64,000 bases of DNA. Source: a virus. Its lineage: Duplodnaviria; Heunggongvirae; Uroviricota; Caudoviricetes. The translations under genes were made by a program, and so were the position numbers. Under the pieces are notes generated by a model. The model was not told where the DNA came from, did no database searches, and saw only the letters and a list, made by a program, of their open reading frames with translations. Where the stretch lies: positions 27,981 to 91,980 of the IMG/VR virus record IMGVR_UViG_2579778606_000002; one strand, given 5' to 3'. Below are positions 27,602-60,516 of the stretch, piece by piece (position 1 is the first letter of the stretch; every line of letters starts with the position of its first letter).

Positions 27602-28486
27602 ATGGTAGATGACAAAAAAGGCTTTCTGAATGTTGAGGAAATATCAGGGAATACCGGAGAAATCCACAGCTTAAAGCCTAACAATAATAGTACTATTCAG
27701 CCGATAGCTTTGTTGCGGCTTGGGGTGTTTGTTCCCACATTGAAATCTACCAGTGTTGCTTTACGTCGCAAGAACGCCGGTTTAACTAACTCCACTGATG
27801 CGACAGAAGAGCTGTCCAGCCTGAAGATTGTAGAGCAGGAAGGGTATCAGGGTATTGAGATTCATGGTCCACGCCTGGATATGGATACTGATTTTAAGGT
27901 GTGGATAGGCATTACATCTGCATTGTTTGACTATAAACCAGATAATGATGGTGTGATCACCCTGACATTCTCTGAATTTGTGGATCGTTGCGGTTATCCA
28001 AGGAAGCGGCTGTCCAAGGCTTTTCGCAAGAGCATTGGCGACTCTCTAACGCGTATTCAGCAGACGTTGCTGAAGTTCAACTTGCCCACCAGCAAAGAAC
28101 ATGTTCGTTATATCCAGATGAATTTATTGGCATTTAGTGAACTTGATACTGAAAATGACATTATAAGAATCCAACCGCAGAAGCAGTTGTCTGAGTTGTA
28201 CTACGTTGACTATAAGCGAATATTGAAGCTCAAAATGCTCGATAAACTTGGCAGGAAAGAGACAGCCAAGGTGCTTTATACGTTTTTCGAAGCGTTACCT
28301 TCAAACCCTGCGCCAGTGAGTATTGAGCGCCTTCGTGCCAGATTGAACCTCAAGTCCTCGGTTAGCGTTCAGAACAGTGTGATTCGTAAAGCCATGAAAG
28401 ACTTAGAAGCTGTTGAATATCTTAAATTTTCAGAGATAAAGAATGGTCGGAAAATAGGTTTCCAGATCCATAAACGAAATCCATAA
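27602..28486 (+). CDS. repA: Plasmid replication initiator RepA (P1 RepA-like)
   Basis: 294-aa ORF with AAGGA RBS; segments QPIALLRLGVFVP and FFEALPSNPAPVSIERLRARL recall P1 RepA; iterons on both sides. Confidence 0.8.
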   Translation: MVDDKKGFLNVEEISGNTGEIHSLKPNNNSTIQPIALLRLGVFVPTLKSTSVALRRKNAGLTNSTDATEELSSLKIVEQEGYQGIEIHGPRLDMDTDFKVWIGITSALFDYKPDNDGVITLTFSEFVDRCGYPRKRLSKAFRKSIGDSLTRIQQTLLKFNLPTSKEHVRYIQMNLLAFSELDTENDIIRIQPQKQLSELYYVDYKRILKLKMLDKLGRKETAKVLYTFFEALPSNPAPVSIERLRARLNLKSSVSVQNSVIRKAMKDLEAVEYLKFSEIKNGRKIGFQIHKRNP

Positions 28487-54839: not shown

Positions 54840-55050
54840 CGCGTGAGGTTCCAATCTCAATGGCGGTAGCACTGACTGGGTTGGAACTACCGGCGCAAAA
54901 GGGAACCGGCCTGCCTTTCGGCAGCCCAGCCAGCACTACCATTGATCTCTGAGCTAAACGCTACGTATGGCTGTGCGATGGCATGACACAAGAAAAGACG
55001 CTTTCGGCGTCTGTGTCGCCTTTTGCATTATCCGGGGTTCCAATCCCGGC
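54840..55050 (-). ncRNA. Candidate c4-like antisense RNA / control region of icd-rha copy 2
   Basis: Direct boxes GGTTCCAATC at 54847 and 55036 with inverted copy GGTTGGAAC at 54879, about 45 nt upstream of icd start. Confidence 0.25.
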
Positions 55051-55117
55051 ACCCGTTTTTCTAAGGTGCCGTAGAAATATACCCCACGATAATGCCAGGG
55101 CGCAACTGTGTGTTTTC

Positions 55118-56192: not shown

Positions 56193-56236
56193 AGAAATAC
56201 CCGGTTTGTCTACATCACCGCTATGGTTGATCAAAT

Positions 56237-56268
56237 GTGTTAGAAAATCAAAATTGATTTTCTAACAC
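56237..56268. promoter_or_regulatory. Near-perfect 32-bp palindrome GTGTTAGAAAATCAA-AA-TTGATTTTCTAACAC (operator candidate)
   Basis: 15-bp arms fully complementary; between divergent ref and the early operon. Confidence 0.6.
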
Positions 56269-56308
56269 AAAATGAAGATACTTTTTTCGGACGCTATATC
56301 AGGAGGTC

Positions 56309-56464
56309 ATGATGCTTGTCGCAATAAGTGCAATCCACCAGCAATCCGGTACAGAAATTGGGTTGCTATATGCCCTGTTTTTCACTGTCCTGGCGTTGTT
56401 TGAGCTGGGTATTGAACTCTTTGCTCTCATTAACTTTTGCGTAACGTTCCTGGGGAAACTTTGA
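56309..56464 (+). CDS. Small hydrophobic membrane peptide (51 aa), not in ORF track
   Basis: AGGAGG RBS then ATG at 56309; MMLVAISAIHQQSGTEIGLLYALFFTVLALFELGIELFALINFCVTFLGKL; stop overlaps next ATG (TGATG). Confidence 0.4.
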   Translation: MMLVAISAIHQQSGTEIGLLYALFFTVLALFELGIELFALINFCVTFLGKL

Positions 56465-57075
56465 TGGCTATACGCATTATGAAAATTTACATCGCGGGTC
56501 CGATGACTGGTTATCCCGACTACAACCGCACAGCGTTTTTTTCGAAAGCAAAAGAGCTGATGGAGGCAGGGCATATTGTTCTGAATCCGGCGCTGTTACC
56601 TGCTGGCCTCTGCCAGAGCGAATACATGGATATTTGCCTTGCTATGGTGCGTTCGGCTAATGCGGTCTATTTGCTCAAGGGGTGGGAGGAATCAGTTGGC
56701 GCTCGTGCAGAGCACGAGCTGGCTCAAAAGCTGGGGCTGAATGTAATTTATGAGTCACCAACCAACATTGAATGCCAGGTTGCTCCGCATATTTACCGGG
56801 AACTGGTCAATGCACTGCGTGATATCGCTGCTGTATATCACGGCACAGAACAGCTTCGTGAGCGTTTAGCCCATACCATTTCCTATTACCTGTCTTTATC
56901 TCATGAGCACAAGCTCCGCCAGAAGGTAATGATCAAATTTATCATGAGGTTATCGAAATCCCTGGCAAACGCCGATCCAAAGAATCCATTACCGAAAGAG
57001 GCAATGAATTACCTGAAGTCCTGCAACGTTGTTTCTGAAGATGGCGTTCTTTTGGTTAGAAGGAGTTCTGCGTGA
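56464..57075 (+). CDS. DUF4406-like (nucleoside 2-deoxyribosyltransferase-like) protein
   Basis: MKIYIAGPMTGYPDYNRTAFF..GHIVLNP motif; track ORF starts at upstream TTG 56437. Confidence 0.6.
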   Translation: MAIRIMKIYIAGPMTGYPDYNRTAFFSKAKELMEAGHIVLNPALLPAGLCQSEYMDICLAMVRSANAVYLLKGWEESVGARAEHELAQKLGLNVIYESPTNIECQVAPHIYRELVNALRDIAAVYHGTEQLRERLAHTISYYLSLSHEHKLRQKVMIKFIMRLSKSLANADPKNPLPKEAMNYLKSCNVVSEDGVLLVRRSSA

Positions 57076-57389
57076 GCTGGCGGGGATGGGGAAGGGCAGA
57101 AATCATGATACTCCGCCAGTGCGCCGGGACTATGACAGTCGAGAGTATTGGGAGGCTGATCGGGCGTACCGGTAGTGCTGTCAGAACCAAAGCGCGGCAA
57201 CTGCGGATCTGCATGATTCTGAAAGGAGACTTTCACCCGTCAGCCAAATACCGGCAGGGCGATATAGAACTGGCACGGCAGCTTCATCGGTGTGGTGTTC
57301 CCCGCCGTGAGATCGCAGAAAAACTCGAAATGCCCCTGGGCATGATTAATCAGTACGTTTATTTCGAAAGGAGAGTGTATGAAGTCTGA
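57072..57389 (+). CDS. Hypothetical small protein (possible HTH)
   Basis: 105-aa ORF, GTG start with AGGAG RBS, GTGA overlap with upstream stop. Confidence 0.45.
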
Positions 57390-57741
57390 AGGTTTAACGC
57401 CCGCACAACTGGCAGAGCGTAACGCTGAATTACTCAGGATTACCCAGGAAAAAGCCTTCCACATACTCGAACGATTAGAGACGCTCTCTACGGAGGAGGA
57501 GATATCCCCGGAGATGCTGGTCGAGTGCAGCCGTGTGATATTGCGTCGCAAGAACGACATCGCGCGGCTGACATCTGGCGCACCATCCGTATCAGCCAGT
57601 CCAACGCTTTATTGCAGCTTCTGTAACAAATCCCAGCACACCGTTAAAAAGTTAATTGCCGGGGACAACGTTTTCATCTGCAACGAGTGCGTGAAAGATT
57701 GCAACAACATTATCCAGGAAGAGCAAAGGGAATCAGCATGA
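57379..57741 (+). CDS. Small protein with C-terminal ClpX-type C4 zinc-finger domain
   Basis: [39 protein letters not shown] is about 70% identical to the E. coli ClpX N-terminal zinc-binding domain. Confidence 0.7.
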
Positions 57742-58385
57742 AATTTTCCAAATTTTCTGAGTTGGTGAATCGTATTTTGTCCAACAACCACAGCCATCGT
57801 CGCGATATGGATGTAACAATCGTTGTTCATTCGCCTGGCAGCATTGGTTCAACACCTTCAGTTGAGGTTCAGTCAATTCACGCTGGTTTTGATTGGGATT
57901 CCGGGAAAGTGCTTATTTTCCCATCACAGCCACTGACCACGCTAACACCAGAACAGATTACTGATATCACTGATAGTGTGCGCAAAGGTCAGTCTTGGCA
58001 CGCATATCAGGAATACAAGAAGCATCAAGAGCAGTTGGAAAAATTGTCGATTGAACTGGATGCCGCAAAACAGCGCATTGCAGAGCTGGAGGGTAATCGC
58101 ACGGCGCTGGCAGTGGAGAATGAGCTGGCTCGTAAGGCAGTTCAGGCATTCTGCGATGTTGTTGGCGACAACACCGAGGTTATCGCTGAGGTGGTTGGGC
58201 GAGATGGCGTTCTGGTTATTTTGGAGGCCATGAAGGCAACAGGAAATATGCCAGCCACCGATGCTTTCCTGGCTGAAGTACGGGCGCAGGGCGTGGAGAT
58301 GTTTGCGGAGTGTGCATACACGCTTGAACATCATGATCACGCAGTAGCCTTCGCCGCTGAGCTTCGCAAAGGAGGCAACCAGTGA
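57737..58385 (+). CDS. Ea22-like family protein (paralog 1)
   Basis: Shares [15 protein letters not shown] and [10 protein letters not shown]-terminal segments with paralogs; ATGA overlap with upstream gene. Confidence 0.55.
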
Positions 58386-58969
58386 GCAAGATTGACTATC
58401 AAGAACTGCGCGAGGCGGCGGAACAGGCAACGCAAGATGAATGGGTAGCATATATTTTGCCGGGTCATAACGGCATTTATCCTGCGCGCACGTCTGAGGG
58501 TAGGCATTGCGGATACTTTATTGACTGGCCTGGCGTCTGTCAGGGGCGGGAGAGCATCAGCATCAGAACCTACGCAGTGAATTGCAATGACGCATGGCTA
58601 AACACCGAAGGTGATGACATCTCCGGCTCATACGTTAAGTACAAAGACCATCAGGAAGTGGTTGCCGCTCTTGAGGCCAAGTGCGCGGCGCTGGCAGTGG
58701 AGAATGCGGCGCTTAAACAGTCGGAGAAGGAATTTAATAACTTCTGTCGTCAGGAGTACTACGGTTGGGAGGACAACTTCACGGAAACCCCAGCTACCGA
58801 CGCTCTCCTGGCTGAAGTACGTGCGCAGGGGGTGGATATGGCTCGTAACGCGATGATTGATTTTGTTGATGGTGAAGTTGGGCCAAACAAGAACGTTCCG
58901 GGGCTGATTAGAGGCGCAGAGATATGCGTAAGTATTGCTGAACAGCTTCGCAAAGGAGGCAGCCAGTGA
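58382..58969 (+). CDS. Ea22-like family protein (paralog 2)
   Basis: N-terminus [14 protein letters not shown] and C-terminus [24 protein letters not shown] shared with paralogs. Confidence 0.55.
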   Translation: MSKIDYQELREAAEQATQDEWVAYILPGHNGIYPARTSEGRHCGYFIDWPGVCQGRESISIRTYAVNCNDAWLNTEGDDISGSYVKYKDHQEVVAALEAKCAALAVENAALKQSEKEFNNFCRQEYYGWEDNFTETPATDALLAEVRAQGVDMARNAMIDFVDGEVGPNKNVPGLIRGAEICVSIAEQLRKGGSQ

Positions 58970-59241
58970 ATATCGACACGACAATAACGATCGATACGCT
59001 CCTAAATACCGGTCTGGCACTTCTCGGTTGGCTTTACATCATGTCCCGTACATGGCGATGGCTGGGTTCCATTTTCCTGAAACAGTGGAAAAAACGGCGC
59101 AAACAGGAACTACGCCAGAAGGCATTAGAAGCGTTCTATGACGCATTTGAGCTTAGCCGCATTGAACCAGGTACAACAGCCAGGATAGCGACAAAAGGCG
59201 ACCTGATGATAGTGATGTTCAGACAGGAGAAAACAAAATGA
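58966..59241 (+). CDS. Small membrane protein
   Basis: 91-aa ORF with one TM helix (LLNTGLALLGWLYIM). Confidence 0.4.
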   Translation: MNIDTTITIDTLLNTGLALLGWLYIMSRTWRWLGSIFLKQWKKRRKQELRQKALEAFYDAFELSRIEPGTTARIATKGDLMIVMFRQEKTK

Positions 59242-59462
59242 CAGAACAGACGATGACAAATCGCGAACTTGTTGATGCCGCGATTGAACTTGCTGGCGAT
59301 TTTTATTCCATGTTGGGTTACGAGCATCGACCTGGTTTTAAGTATTGGGAGTCACCGCATCCGCAAGAACAACAGGTGTTTGAAATGGCCTGCCGTGCTT
59401 TTGAGGTTATTCGCGGTTCTGATGTGATGGAGGCCGTTGCCGACTTGGAGGATGAAGAGTGA
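59238..59462 (+). CDS. Small acidic hypothetical protein
   Basis: 74-aa ORF, overlapping start/stop with neighbours. Confidence 0.4.
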   Translation: MTEQTMTNRELVDAAIELAGDFYSMLGYEHRPGFKYWESPHPQEQQVFEMACRAFEVIRGSDVMEAVADLEDEE

Positions 59463-59770
59463 GCATCATTAAAGAAATGCCGGTAGAACGTGATGAATAT
59501 GGCTGCTGGACACATCCGGAGTATGAAAAGTTTTGCGCAGGTCGTGAATATATATCCACTGAGGAATTTGACGCCTGGATGAAGGAAAATAATCTTCAGT
59601 GGACTATTCGCAGTATGGATGAAGATCATTTTAATCTGGACGCAGATGGTCCCGATATTGCCGCCTGGGAACCAGAGCGACCAGAGGGCGAAGGATGGTT
59701 TGTTGGCTCTATTCATGACACTGAAGATGGCCCGGTTTGTATCTGGCTGCGGGAGAAGGTTGCCGCATGA
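59459..59770 (+). CDS. Hypothetical protein
   Basis: 103-aa ORF in the overlapping early operon. Confidence 0.4.
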
Positions 59771-60453
59771 CCCAGGCGCTGCATGAAGTGAATTTATATA
59801 GCCGTATTGATGGTTCAGGCTACAGAAACATATGGGTTGTTGGTGATCTGCATGGTTGCTACACCAGATTGATGTCTGAACTTCATCGTGTGGACTTTGA
59901 CCCGACACAGGATTTACTGATATCGGTTGGCGACCTTATCGATCGCGGCACCGAAAATGTTGAATGCCTGGAGCTATTGCAGATGCCCTGGTTTCGGTCG
60001 GTTATGGGAAACCACGAGCGATTAATGATCGATGCGTTAAGCCCCGCAGGCAACGTGAATAACTGGCTAATGAATGGCGGCCAATGGTTCTTCATGCTGG
60101 ACGCTGATCGGGAAATATTAGCCAGGGCGCTGGTGGAGCTGGTAAGACGTTTACCCTATATCATTGAGTTGAACACCGGGCATGAAACTATCGTTATAGC
60201 CCATGCCGACTATCCTGATAACGAATACCAGTTTGGTAAACCTGTTAGCGATCTCAATGTTACCTGGCGGCGTGAGCGATTTTATGACGCGGTTGATGGT
60301 GTTGGTGGAATGATCACTGGTGCAGATAGCTTTATTTTCGGGCATACGCCAGTAAACAGCCCGAAATCTTTCTGGAACCAGCACTACATAGACACTGGCG
60401 CGGTTTTTTGCGGAAATCTGACGCTAAAGCAGGTGAAGGGAGGCCAGCCGTAA
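59767..60453 (+). CDS. Ser/Thr protein phosphatase (lambda PPase-like metallophosphoesterase)
   Basis: GDLHG, GDLIDRG and GNHE motifs; alignable to lambda phosphatase along its length; ATG at 59767. Confidence 0.8.
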
Positions 60454-60484: not shown

Positions 60485-60516
60485 GTGTTAGAATATTGAT
60501 TTTAATTTTCTAACAT
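60485..60516. promoter_or_regulatory. 32-bp operator-like palindrome (GTGTTAGAAT..TTTTCTAACAT)
   Basis: Same inverted-repeat family, about 40 nt upstream of gene 60558. Confidence 0.5.

Follow-up and report, generated by a model that had tools for sequence, protein, structure and literature searches.

The 64,000-nt window analysed here (the whole stretch, positions 27,981 to 91,980 of the Caudoviricetes record IMGVR_UViG_2579778606_000002) carries a short gene whose 120-residue product joins a helical hairpin to a C-terminal zinc-binding domain (ZBD) of the ClpX type. Its open reading frame (ORF), at 57379-57741 on the plus strand, is present precisely as a sequence-only reading of the window had given it, and the ORF list also bears out the operon membership proposed there: the gene lies within a tightly packed operon of nine genes on the same strand. 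The same reading had assigned the C-terminal 40 residues to the ClpX ZBD and described the remainder as an unrelated N-terminal region of 80 residues. The domain is real, but it spans residues 77-115 and is followed by five further residues (QRESA). The N-terminal region is 76 residues long and composite, comprising a leader (residues 1-20), a conserved hairpin specific to the family (21-66) and a linker (67-76). Nucleotide coordinates are collected in Table 1.

The ClpX-type zinc finger and its N-terminal partner

Profile, metal ligands and predicted fold all mark the finger as a genuine zf-C4_ClpX domain. Residues 77-115 align without gaps to residues 13-51 of Escherichia coli ClpX with 28 of 39 positions identical, and this 72% agrees with the "about 70%" of the sequence-only reading. 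The alignment against ClpX residues 1-60 which had been suggested as a check, run by tblastn over the 64-kb window, returned the ZBD gene as its sole match (E = 6e-18, with the same 28/39 identities). The Pfam profile PF06689 (zf-C4_ClpX) is matched over positions 2-39 of 39 with E = 1.3e-17 and 63.8 bits, for a gathering score of 27, and a Pfam scan found the same domain in all 25 aligned family members. Moreover, a phmmer search against all PDB sequences gave seven matches, every one of them ClpX (best 1OVX, E = 1.6e-15). The cysteines C79, C82, C101 and C104 pair with the ClpX ligands C15, C18, C37 and C40 (PMC8808172), with the spacing CxxC-x18-CxxC. All four are invariant (24/24 family members), and the hydrophobic core positions of the finger are also kept across the family.

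An AlphaFold2 model computed from 25 family sequences has a mean predicted local distance difference test score (pLDDT) of 81.6 and a predicted template modelling score (pTM) of 0.37, so that the orientation of the hairpin relative to the finger is not fixed in the model. The finger itself (pLDDT 88-93) is predicted to adopt a treble-clef fold with two β-hairpins and a C-terminal helix. In Foldseek comparisons this predicted finger superposes on the ClpX ZBD crystal structures 2DS5, 2DS6, 2DS7 and 2DS8, the last being a complex of the ZBD with the SspB tail, with a root-mean-square deviation of 0.5-0.6 Å over 38 residues and TM(target) values of 0.83-0.91. The PDB folds that come next after the ClpX ZBD (LIM, ZZ and PHD fingers) have E > 0.5. 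The possibility that the finger is just a generic C4 ribbon, raised in the sequence-only reading as an argument against its own proposal, is ruled out by the Pfam score, the restriction of PDB matches to ClpX and the fold superposition.

The phage copy and the ClpX ZBD share four cysteine ligands at equal spacing, 72% identity over 39 residues and, in the model, the treble-clef fold. The phage copy differs in forming the C-terminal part of a small protein in which a helical hairpin precedes it, and in the substitutions E24T, P32D, S33N, D42K and L43D (ClpX numbering). It also differs in having no AAA+ motor: no AAA+ module was detected with the ClpX equivalog models TIGR00382 and NF003745, which match the 120-residue protein over model positions 5-50 only, with 43-47 bits against cut-offs of 359-371. 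A protein without this module could bind, but could not unfold. As judged from its sequence, it is not ClpX, an SspB-type adaptor, a DksA/TraR protein or a listed PADLOC defence protein.

The hairpin is predicted to consist of two helices at residues 23-39 and 44-65 (17 and 22 residues, pLDDT 87-94), with a conserved acidic TEEE(I/V) motif at the turn. Its near-invariant alignment columns are T22, E24, K25, R32, L33, E34, L36, E40, I42, L47, L55, R56, R57, D60, R63, L64 and T65. Both helices carry hydrophobic faces (A26, F27, I29, L30, L33 and L36; L47, V48, V53, I54, L55, I61 and L64). The linker varies in sequence and length in the alignment. In the chimeric protein P0026 an Ead/Ea22-type coiled coil replaces the hairpin and is joined straight to the linker and ZBD, which identifies the linker as a recombination joint in that protein.

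No homologue of the hairpin was found in Pfam (a lenient scan gave noise only), in the PDB or in BFVD, where Foldseek retrieved the ZBD alone. The hairpin profile likewise gave no confirmed match in GTDB species-representative genomes; the gene is accessory and missing from these representatives. When the hairpin alone served as the query of a full HMMER scan, 1.84 billion representative proteins yielded nine matches, all of them family members or their truncated or frameshifted copies. In IMG/VR the hairpin is encoded at 74 loci, with the family ORF identified at 71; the ClpX-type finger is fused to the hairpin in every one of these 71, and the lone ORF without a finger ends at a contig edge. 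Across these collections, the hairpin is confined to members of this family.

An antiparallel helix pair whose turn is acidic and conserved, followed by a CxxC-x18-CxxC finger, bears a superficial likeness to RNA polymerase regulators of the DksA/TraR type, and the protein might on that account mimic secondary-channel factors such as lambda Orf73, which is encoded in a comparable accessory region. Indeed, one Pseudomonas phage ORF with a ZBD overlaps a feature annotated "DksA-like zinc-finger protein". This explanation is nevertheless very improbable and was rejected: none of 25 members matches the DksA/TraR finger of Pfam even at E <= 10, whereas all 25 match zf-C4_ClpX. In addition, helices of just 17 and 22 residues, a flexible linker and a pTM of 0.37 are unlike the integrated fold of DksA.

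Genomic setting, distribution and evolution of the family

Comparison with its relatives assigns the window to a D6/P1-like phage-plasmid. Over 6 kb, the ZBD gene and its surroundings are 97-98% identical to non-mobilizable E. coli plasmids of ~90 kb. The gene itself is 87-90% identical to phage D6, and its product is 83% identical to D6 orf93. It is the third gene of the operon, which diverges from ref (on the minus strand) and encodes, in order, a DUF4406 protein, a DNA-binding protein resembling sigma-70 region 4 (57105-57389), the ZBD protein, two Ead/Ea22-like proteins, three small ORFs and a metallophosphoesterase of the ppp type. The ZBD gene shares its first 11 nt with the end of the preceding gene, and its own stop shares the sequence ATGA with the following start.

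Table 1. Positions of the ZBD gene, its parts and nearby features in the 64,000-nt window (dN/dS, ratio of non-synonymous to synonymous substitution rates; sRNA, small RNA)
Feature	Position	Strand	Basis or remark
ClpX-ZBD protein gene, 120 aa	57379..57741 (stop codon included)	+	ORF list; names of RefSeq relatives; PHROG 6797; dN/dS < 1
Shine-Dalgarno sequence AAGGAG	57368-57373	+	Sequence inspection; 5 nt ahead of ATG
Mosaic leader, non-conserved, residues 1-20	57379..57438	+	Match to D6 orf91; pLDDT ~62
Helical-hairpin N-domain, conserved, residues 21-66	57439..57576	+	Alignment columns; AlphaFold2; profile searches
Linker, Ser/Pro/Ala-rich, residues 67-76	57577..57606	+	No secondary structure; pLDDT ~70-74
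ClpX-type ZBD, residues 77-115	57607..57723	+	PF06689; ClpX alignment; fold match
Zn ligands C79, C82, C101, C104	codons at 57613, 57622, 57679, 57688	+	Aligned to ClpX Cys ligands
Nine-gene operon, overlapping stops and starts	56437..60453	+	ORF list; Pfam; PHROGs; annotation of 98%-identical relatives
Palindrome, 16+16 nt, TGTGTTAGAAAATCAA-AA-TTGATTTTCTAACACA	56236-56269		Intergenic; divergent ref/operon promoter region
C4 antisense RNA	54859-54946	-	Rfam, 76.7 bits; beside icd/ant-type genes
isrK-like Hfq-binding sRNA	54991-55069	-	Rfam, 59.4 bits; beside icd/ant-type genes

The protein begins with the same 17 residues as phage D6 orf91, which is an Ead/Ea22-like protein (L002 4959-5315). 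The D6 orthologue of the window gene, orf93 (L002 5980-6300, 107 aa), and most other relatives begin with MTTSHSAIT. On this comparison the window gene is a recombinant, in which the arrangement equals that of D6 minus the remainder of orf91 and orf92. The two genes downstream (57738-58385 and 58382-58969) are themselves Ead/Ea22-like mosaics, paralogous over their C-terminal two thirds (27% identity, E = 6e-10) and both ending in LRKGG(N/S)Q; D6 orf91 ends in the same C-terminal module.

The palindrome in the divergent promoter region is a candidate operator for the element's own repressor. It recurs exactly in four IMG/VR relatives (L023, L025, L027 and L028), and its half-site, TTAGAAAAT(C/T)A, occurs eight times in the window against 1.85 expected, one occurrence lying at 60503-60513 in the gap before a DUF968/pdcB-like gene. 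The P1 C1 operator consensus had no match with up to three mismatches in the whole window, so that the P1 regulatory map is not transferable. Repressor control, and hence early expression of the operon, is plausible. A P1-type immI immunity region lies directly upstream of ref and the operon, with its C4 RNA 2.4 kb upstream of the ZBD gene. The window gave no match to a P1 Phd query; in a 98.6%-identical relative, phd/doc lies ~8 kb downstream, that is, past the end of the window. Neither gene was found in the examined regions of P2-like carriers, which indicates that the function of the ZBD protein is not tied to phd/doc.

The protein belongs to PHROG 6797, a family of unknown function (E = 1e-53, residues 16-119 on profile positions 3-106 of 107), which includes D6 orf93 and P88 gp19 (L016 2914-3246); the window protein differs from these relatives in its first 20 residues, which derive from a neighbouring Ead/Ea22-like gene. 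RefSeq uses the name "ClpX C4-type zinc finger protein", and many older GenBank records are misnamed "carboxylate--amine ligase". A blastn search located the gene in 195 of 5426 complete E. coli genomes, with roughly half of its copies on chromosomes. It also occurs in 95 PLSDB plasmids. Part of the surrounding 6 kb is matched by 877 plasmid records, 81 of them over at least 80%. The gene is carried by phage-plasmids, both D6-like and of ~108 kb, by P2/P88-like prophages and by prophages of at least one further type.

The gene order in P2/P88-like prophages is gpA, ParM, ParR-like, ZBD gene and, further on, portal gpQ. The ParM (StbA)/ParR-like (Plasmid_stab_B) cassette directly follows gpA in L003-L006, in L016 and at ~39 IMG/VR loci, which places a plasmid-partition cassette inside integrated P2-like prophages. 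No conserved partner gene was found, either when ORFs flanking the gene on four backbones were compared pairwise by BLAST or by clustering of ~2,500 neighbour ORFs from 76 loci; the recurring neighbours were confined to backbone genes (gpA, ParM, ParR-like, portal) and mosaic Ead/Ea22-like genes. These contexts indicate that the gene moves among phage backbones as a single-gene module. Such mobility in the absence of a partner fits an action on a conserved host machine.

Between copies from different phage backbones, dN/dS is 0.18-0.5 for the hairpin and 0.3-0.8 for the finger, in small windows that make the estimates noisy. Both halves are under purifying selection, the hairpin being the more tightly constrained. 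Deep-branching members resemble ClpX more than the window protein does: they are identical to E. coli ClpX at 33/39 and 31/39 positions (79-85%), against 28/39, and lie nearer to ClpX than to the window protein. They have retained AGPSVYIC-ECVDLCN-IIR, the gammaproteobacterial signature. Their position fits descent from ClpX with continued constraint toward ClpX-likeness. The window subclade (72%) ranks with the most derived ones, and the subclade formed by P0021-23 and P0027 is at 54% ClpX identity. A recent capture from the host clpX gene was considered and rejected, since a sensitive blastn search of the ZBD-coding DNA against the 5426 E. coli genomes recovered family genes only, never clpX. 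The absence of nucleotide similarity to host clpX suggests that the capture is old.

Some copies are damaged. P0124, P0125, P0127 and P0128 are truncated or frameshifted past the hairpin, and ORFs of 282 and 293 aa at two IMG/VR loci (among L017-L090) result from a frameshift in the ZBD helix (…FICDECGCVQQ…) that fuses the gene to its downstream neighbour. Such copies point to occasional decay beside general conservation. Together with the mosaic N-terminus, they could be taken to mean that the gene is a functionless decaying fragment or an annotation artefact. This is scarcely credible, as the gene has a strong Shine-Dalgarno sequence and is translationally coupled, dN/dS is well below 1 across backbones with invariant zinc ligands, and intact copies occur in 195 complete E. 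coli genomes, 95 plasmids and 74 viral contigs. The pattern of conservation effectively refutes it.

The docking surface and possible action on ClpXP

The ClpX ZBD is a homodimer and serves as the docking site for SspB, RssB, UmuD/UmuD', lambda O, MuA and FtsZ (PMC8808172, PMC7804408). Binding of the MqsA degron needs L12, L13 and H23, and is accompanied by chemical shift perturbations at K27, I29 and A30 (PMC8808172). The SspB tail occupies an overlapping site, and the free tail peptide competitively inhibits N-domain-dependent degradation (PMC8808172). A hydrophobic pocket formed by F16 and I46 (F17 and I47 if Met1 is counted) is common to lambda O, SspB, RssB and trigger factor (PMC7804408). 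The contact residues considered here were taken from these two papers only.

Most of these residues are retained in the family. The ClpX residue is found in 24/24 members at F17, in 22/24 at I29, in 21/24 at L13, in 19/24 at A30 and in 16/24 at K27. H23 is kept in 15 of the 24, with tyrosine in six more, and I47 in 12, with valine in nine more. L12 is kept in a single member (1/24) and is mostly replaced by threonine, a residue also present at this position in genuine ClpX of other bacteria (P0087, P0120). The window protein has L13, F17, H23, K27, I29, A30 and I47, with threonine at position 12 and aspartate at position 43. Over the family, the eight contact positions are 68% identical to ClpX, compared with 42% at 15 other non-ligand, non-cysteine positions (our own classification), a contrast that gives modest support only, since these contact residues are hydrophobic and in part serve the structure.

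These features suggest that the protein is a dimeric mimic of the ClpX ZBD that sequesters N-domain-dependent adaptors or substrates, a reading to which a probability of roughly 0.4 may be attached and for which we infer dimerisation, ligand binding, competition with ClpX and a biological target as follows. An ancestral ClpX ZBD of the gammaproteobacterial type would have been captured by a temperate phage and joined through a flexible linker to the family-specific hairpin. The protein would fold around one Zn2+ and form a ClpX-like ZBD dimer, and the hairpin would most likely drive or stabilise homodimerisation, as a four-helix bundle, or add target specificity. The same hydrophobic docking groove would be offered to adaptor tails (SspB, RssB, UmuD) and to N-domain-dependent substrates such as lambda O-type initiators, MuA and unfolded MqsA. 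Lacking a motor, the protein would bind these ligands unproductively and compete with ClpX for them. The N-domain-dependent reactions of ClpXP or ClpX would be damped, and direct recognition by the pore, for example of bare ssrA tags, would be spared. The beneficiary could be a ClpXP-labile phage or plasmid protein, such as a replication initiator, an antitoxin (for example Phd) or the UmuD'-like HumD; alternatively, the victim could be a competing ClpX-dependent phage.

Competitive sequestration is the simplest mechanism for a groove without a motor, and the inhibition of degradation by the SspB tail peptide indicates that competition at the ZBD interface works in principle. A dimeric decoy would also suit dimeric adaptors such as SspB. 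The sequence-only reading, in which the protein could be a decoy altering ClpXP proteolysis, thus appears partly supported: the identity of the domain is solid, and the decoy idea is reasonable and has been sharpened here. It seems more doubtful that the protein is, in the full sense, a naturally occurring dominant-negative form of the docking domain of ClpX, namely a homodimeric mimic whose hairpin provides avidity or specificity, and which switches off the adaptor and N-domain branch while leaving pore-recognised substrates untouched. Its targets would then be SspB, RssB-sigmaS, UmuD/D', clients of the lambda O and MuA types and possibly Phd. Depending on timing, the element's own ClpXP-labile proteins would be stabilised, or ClpX-dependent competitors, Mu-like phages for example, would be excluded through expression of the gene from a prophage with the gene in the P2 gpA-gpQ interval. 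The literature searched contained no functional study of any family member or of any orphan phage ZBD.

Phages are known to inhibit several host AAA+ proteases: T4 PinA and T7 gp4.5 act on Lon, lambda CIII on FtsH and SPO1 gp53 on ClpC. Lambda RexB acts on the ClpP-dependent degradation of lambda O, Phd and MazE. The proposed action has in common with these modulators that a small phage accessory protein alters the stability of selected proteins through a host ATP-dependent protease. It would differ in that none of them copies a protease domain, the protein described here being a putative mimic of the enzyme's own docking domain. We know of no natural protein that targets the interface of the ClpX N-domain, nor of one that works by copying an enzyme's docking domain.

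Several observations weigh against mimicry. The ZBD has a higher dN/dS than the hairpin, although strict mimicry predicts strong constraint on the ZBD, and a simple decoy leaves the conserved hairpin unexplained. Indeed, the conservation of this family-specific hairpin implies that the protein is probably more than a bare decoy. The window subclade is the most ClpX-divergent at the surface (E24T, P32D, S33N, D42K), and in this subclade (4/24 members) the conserved helix residue L43 is replaced by aspartate. H23, A30 and K27 are lost in one subclade (P0019, P0021-23, P0027), so that preservation of the pocket is not uniform across the family. The affinities of isolated ZBDs for their ligands are weak, in the micromolar range, and a pure sponge would need high expression or avidity. 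Finally, no consistent neighbour presents itself as the protected substrate, and P1 and P7 do without the gene, which is consequently dispensable for this type of phage.

The constraint on the hairpin could be accommodated if the protein were a target-specific adaptor or anti-adaptor. The hairpin would hold one phage or host protein, and the ZBD, by pairing with the ClpX ZBD or with an adaptor, would dock the complex on ClpX or shield it, resulting in specific delivery or protection and not in general competition. Such a two-part tether would explain why the hairpin exists only together with the ZBD, and the hairpin is also the more constrained half of the protein (dN/dS 0.18-0.5). Moreover, the flexible 10-residue linker recalls the arrangement of SspB (body, linker, ClpX-binding tail), and the broad hydrophobic faces of both helices suggest a partner or an oligomer. 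The contexts examined, however, offer no co-inherited partner gene, and the hairpin has no structural match in the PDB or BFVD. The ZBDs of ClpX are also pre-paired in the hexamer at high local concentration, from which it may be deduced that a heterodimer formed in trans would be unfavourable (after PMC7804408). An adaptor role of this kind therefore seems fairly unlikely.

Adaptors and anti-adaptors act at the interface between ZBD and adaptor (PMC7804408, PMC8808172), and the protein shares with SspB, and with RssB and its partners IraP, IraM and IraD, a small folded body, a flexible linker and an element of the ClpX interface. It differs from ClpXP adaptors in the nature of this element: adaptors bear a peptide that binds the ZBD, and the phage protein bears the ZBD itself. 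The ClpX-binding (XB) tail of SspB is C-terminal and hydrophobic-basic (...RPALRVVK; PMC8808172). No tail of this type is present at the C-terminus of the window protein, and other members end in GAGR, LRK or EGSA.

The location of the gene in P2-like prophages raises a further alternative, namely that the ZBD has been re-used as a generic zinc-stabilised module for dimerisation or peptide binding, independent of ClpXP, for example as prophage exclusion or defence cargo. The gpA-gpQ interval of P2-like phages is a hotspot for anti-phage systems, and a supplementary table of the same study lists the arrangement "StbA + Plasmid_stab_B + zf-C4_ClpX + hypothetical" in this hotspot, ClpX being unmentioned in the main text (PMC9122126). 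Drift of the ZBD surface, including the loss of H23, A30 and K27 noted above, would be in keeping with such re-use, as would the versatility of treble-clef fingers as interaction modules. The hotspot, however, also holds cargo other than defence systems (the ParM/ParR cassette), and the neighbours of the gene in phage-plasmids are early accessory genes of the lambdoid ea/nin type, not defence systems. The ZBD protein and four neighbours gave no match to any PADLOC defence model at E <= 0.01. Furthermore, an identity to ClpX of 72-85% that includes the ligand groove exceeds what re-use of the fold alone would need. A role unconnected with ClpXP appears on balance unlikely.

At present, the finding stands at the level of annotation. 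The domain and the family have already been catalogued; the architecture of hairpin and orphan ZBD, the spread over phage backbones and the proposed action are undescribed. ClpXP acts on lambda O, on MuA (by remodelling), on antitoxins (P1 Phd, MqsA), on SOS mutagenesis proteins and on sigma-S, and these clients constitute decision points for temperate phages and plasmids. If the mimicry of the ClpX ZBD is real, the protein would be the first protease inhibitor made by mimicry of the protease's own domain. It would also provide a genetically encoded, branch-selective tool for separating adaptor- and N-domain-dependent from pore-dependent ClpXP proteolysis in vivo, and would represent a new class of cargo for the P2 hotspot and the accessory regions of phage-plasmids. 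If mimicry fails, the family would still be a clear-cut example of a captured host domain joined to a new partner domain.

Other ClpX-type fingers without an ATPase

ClpX-type fingers lacking both the ATPase and the hairpin occur as stand-alone ORFs of 41-65 aa in other phages: Pseudomonas phi1 (65 aa) and PP9W2 (65 aa), Caulobacter Cr30 (gp170; L015 1600-1725), Bacillus phage G (gp258) and PA5oct-like jumbo Pseudomonas phages. The orphan finger of phi1 (L014 2004-2201) lies just past replication protein P, in a nin-like region. These ORFs share with the window protein an ATPase-less ClpX-type finger in a phage accessory region. They differ in the absence of the hairpin and in a finger identity of 38-58%, and probably represent independent captures. 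Their occurrence in unrelated phages points to recurrent recruitment of, or selection for, the bare domain, and such repeated orphan ZBDs would be accounted for if mimicry of the ClpX docking domain holds.

Two further arrangements were observed. In the metagenomic proteins P0031 and P0032 (176 aa), a tandem pair of ClpX-type fingers precedes a third CxxC…CxxC ribbon, without an ATPase. P0079 (L011; L012 6001-6336) is a chromosomal, non-phage protein of 111 aa in which a ClpX-type finger follows an N-terminal helical region that differs from the phage hairpin and has no homology to it. Its gene adjoins a TatD DNase gene and a gene of the metallo-β-lactamase fold with a Pfam match to Anti-Pycsar Apyc1.

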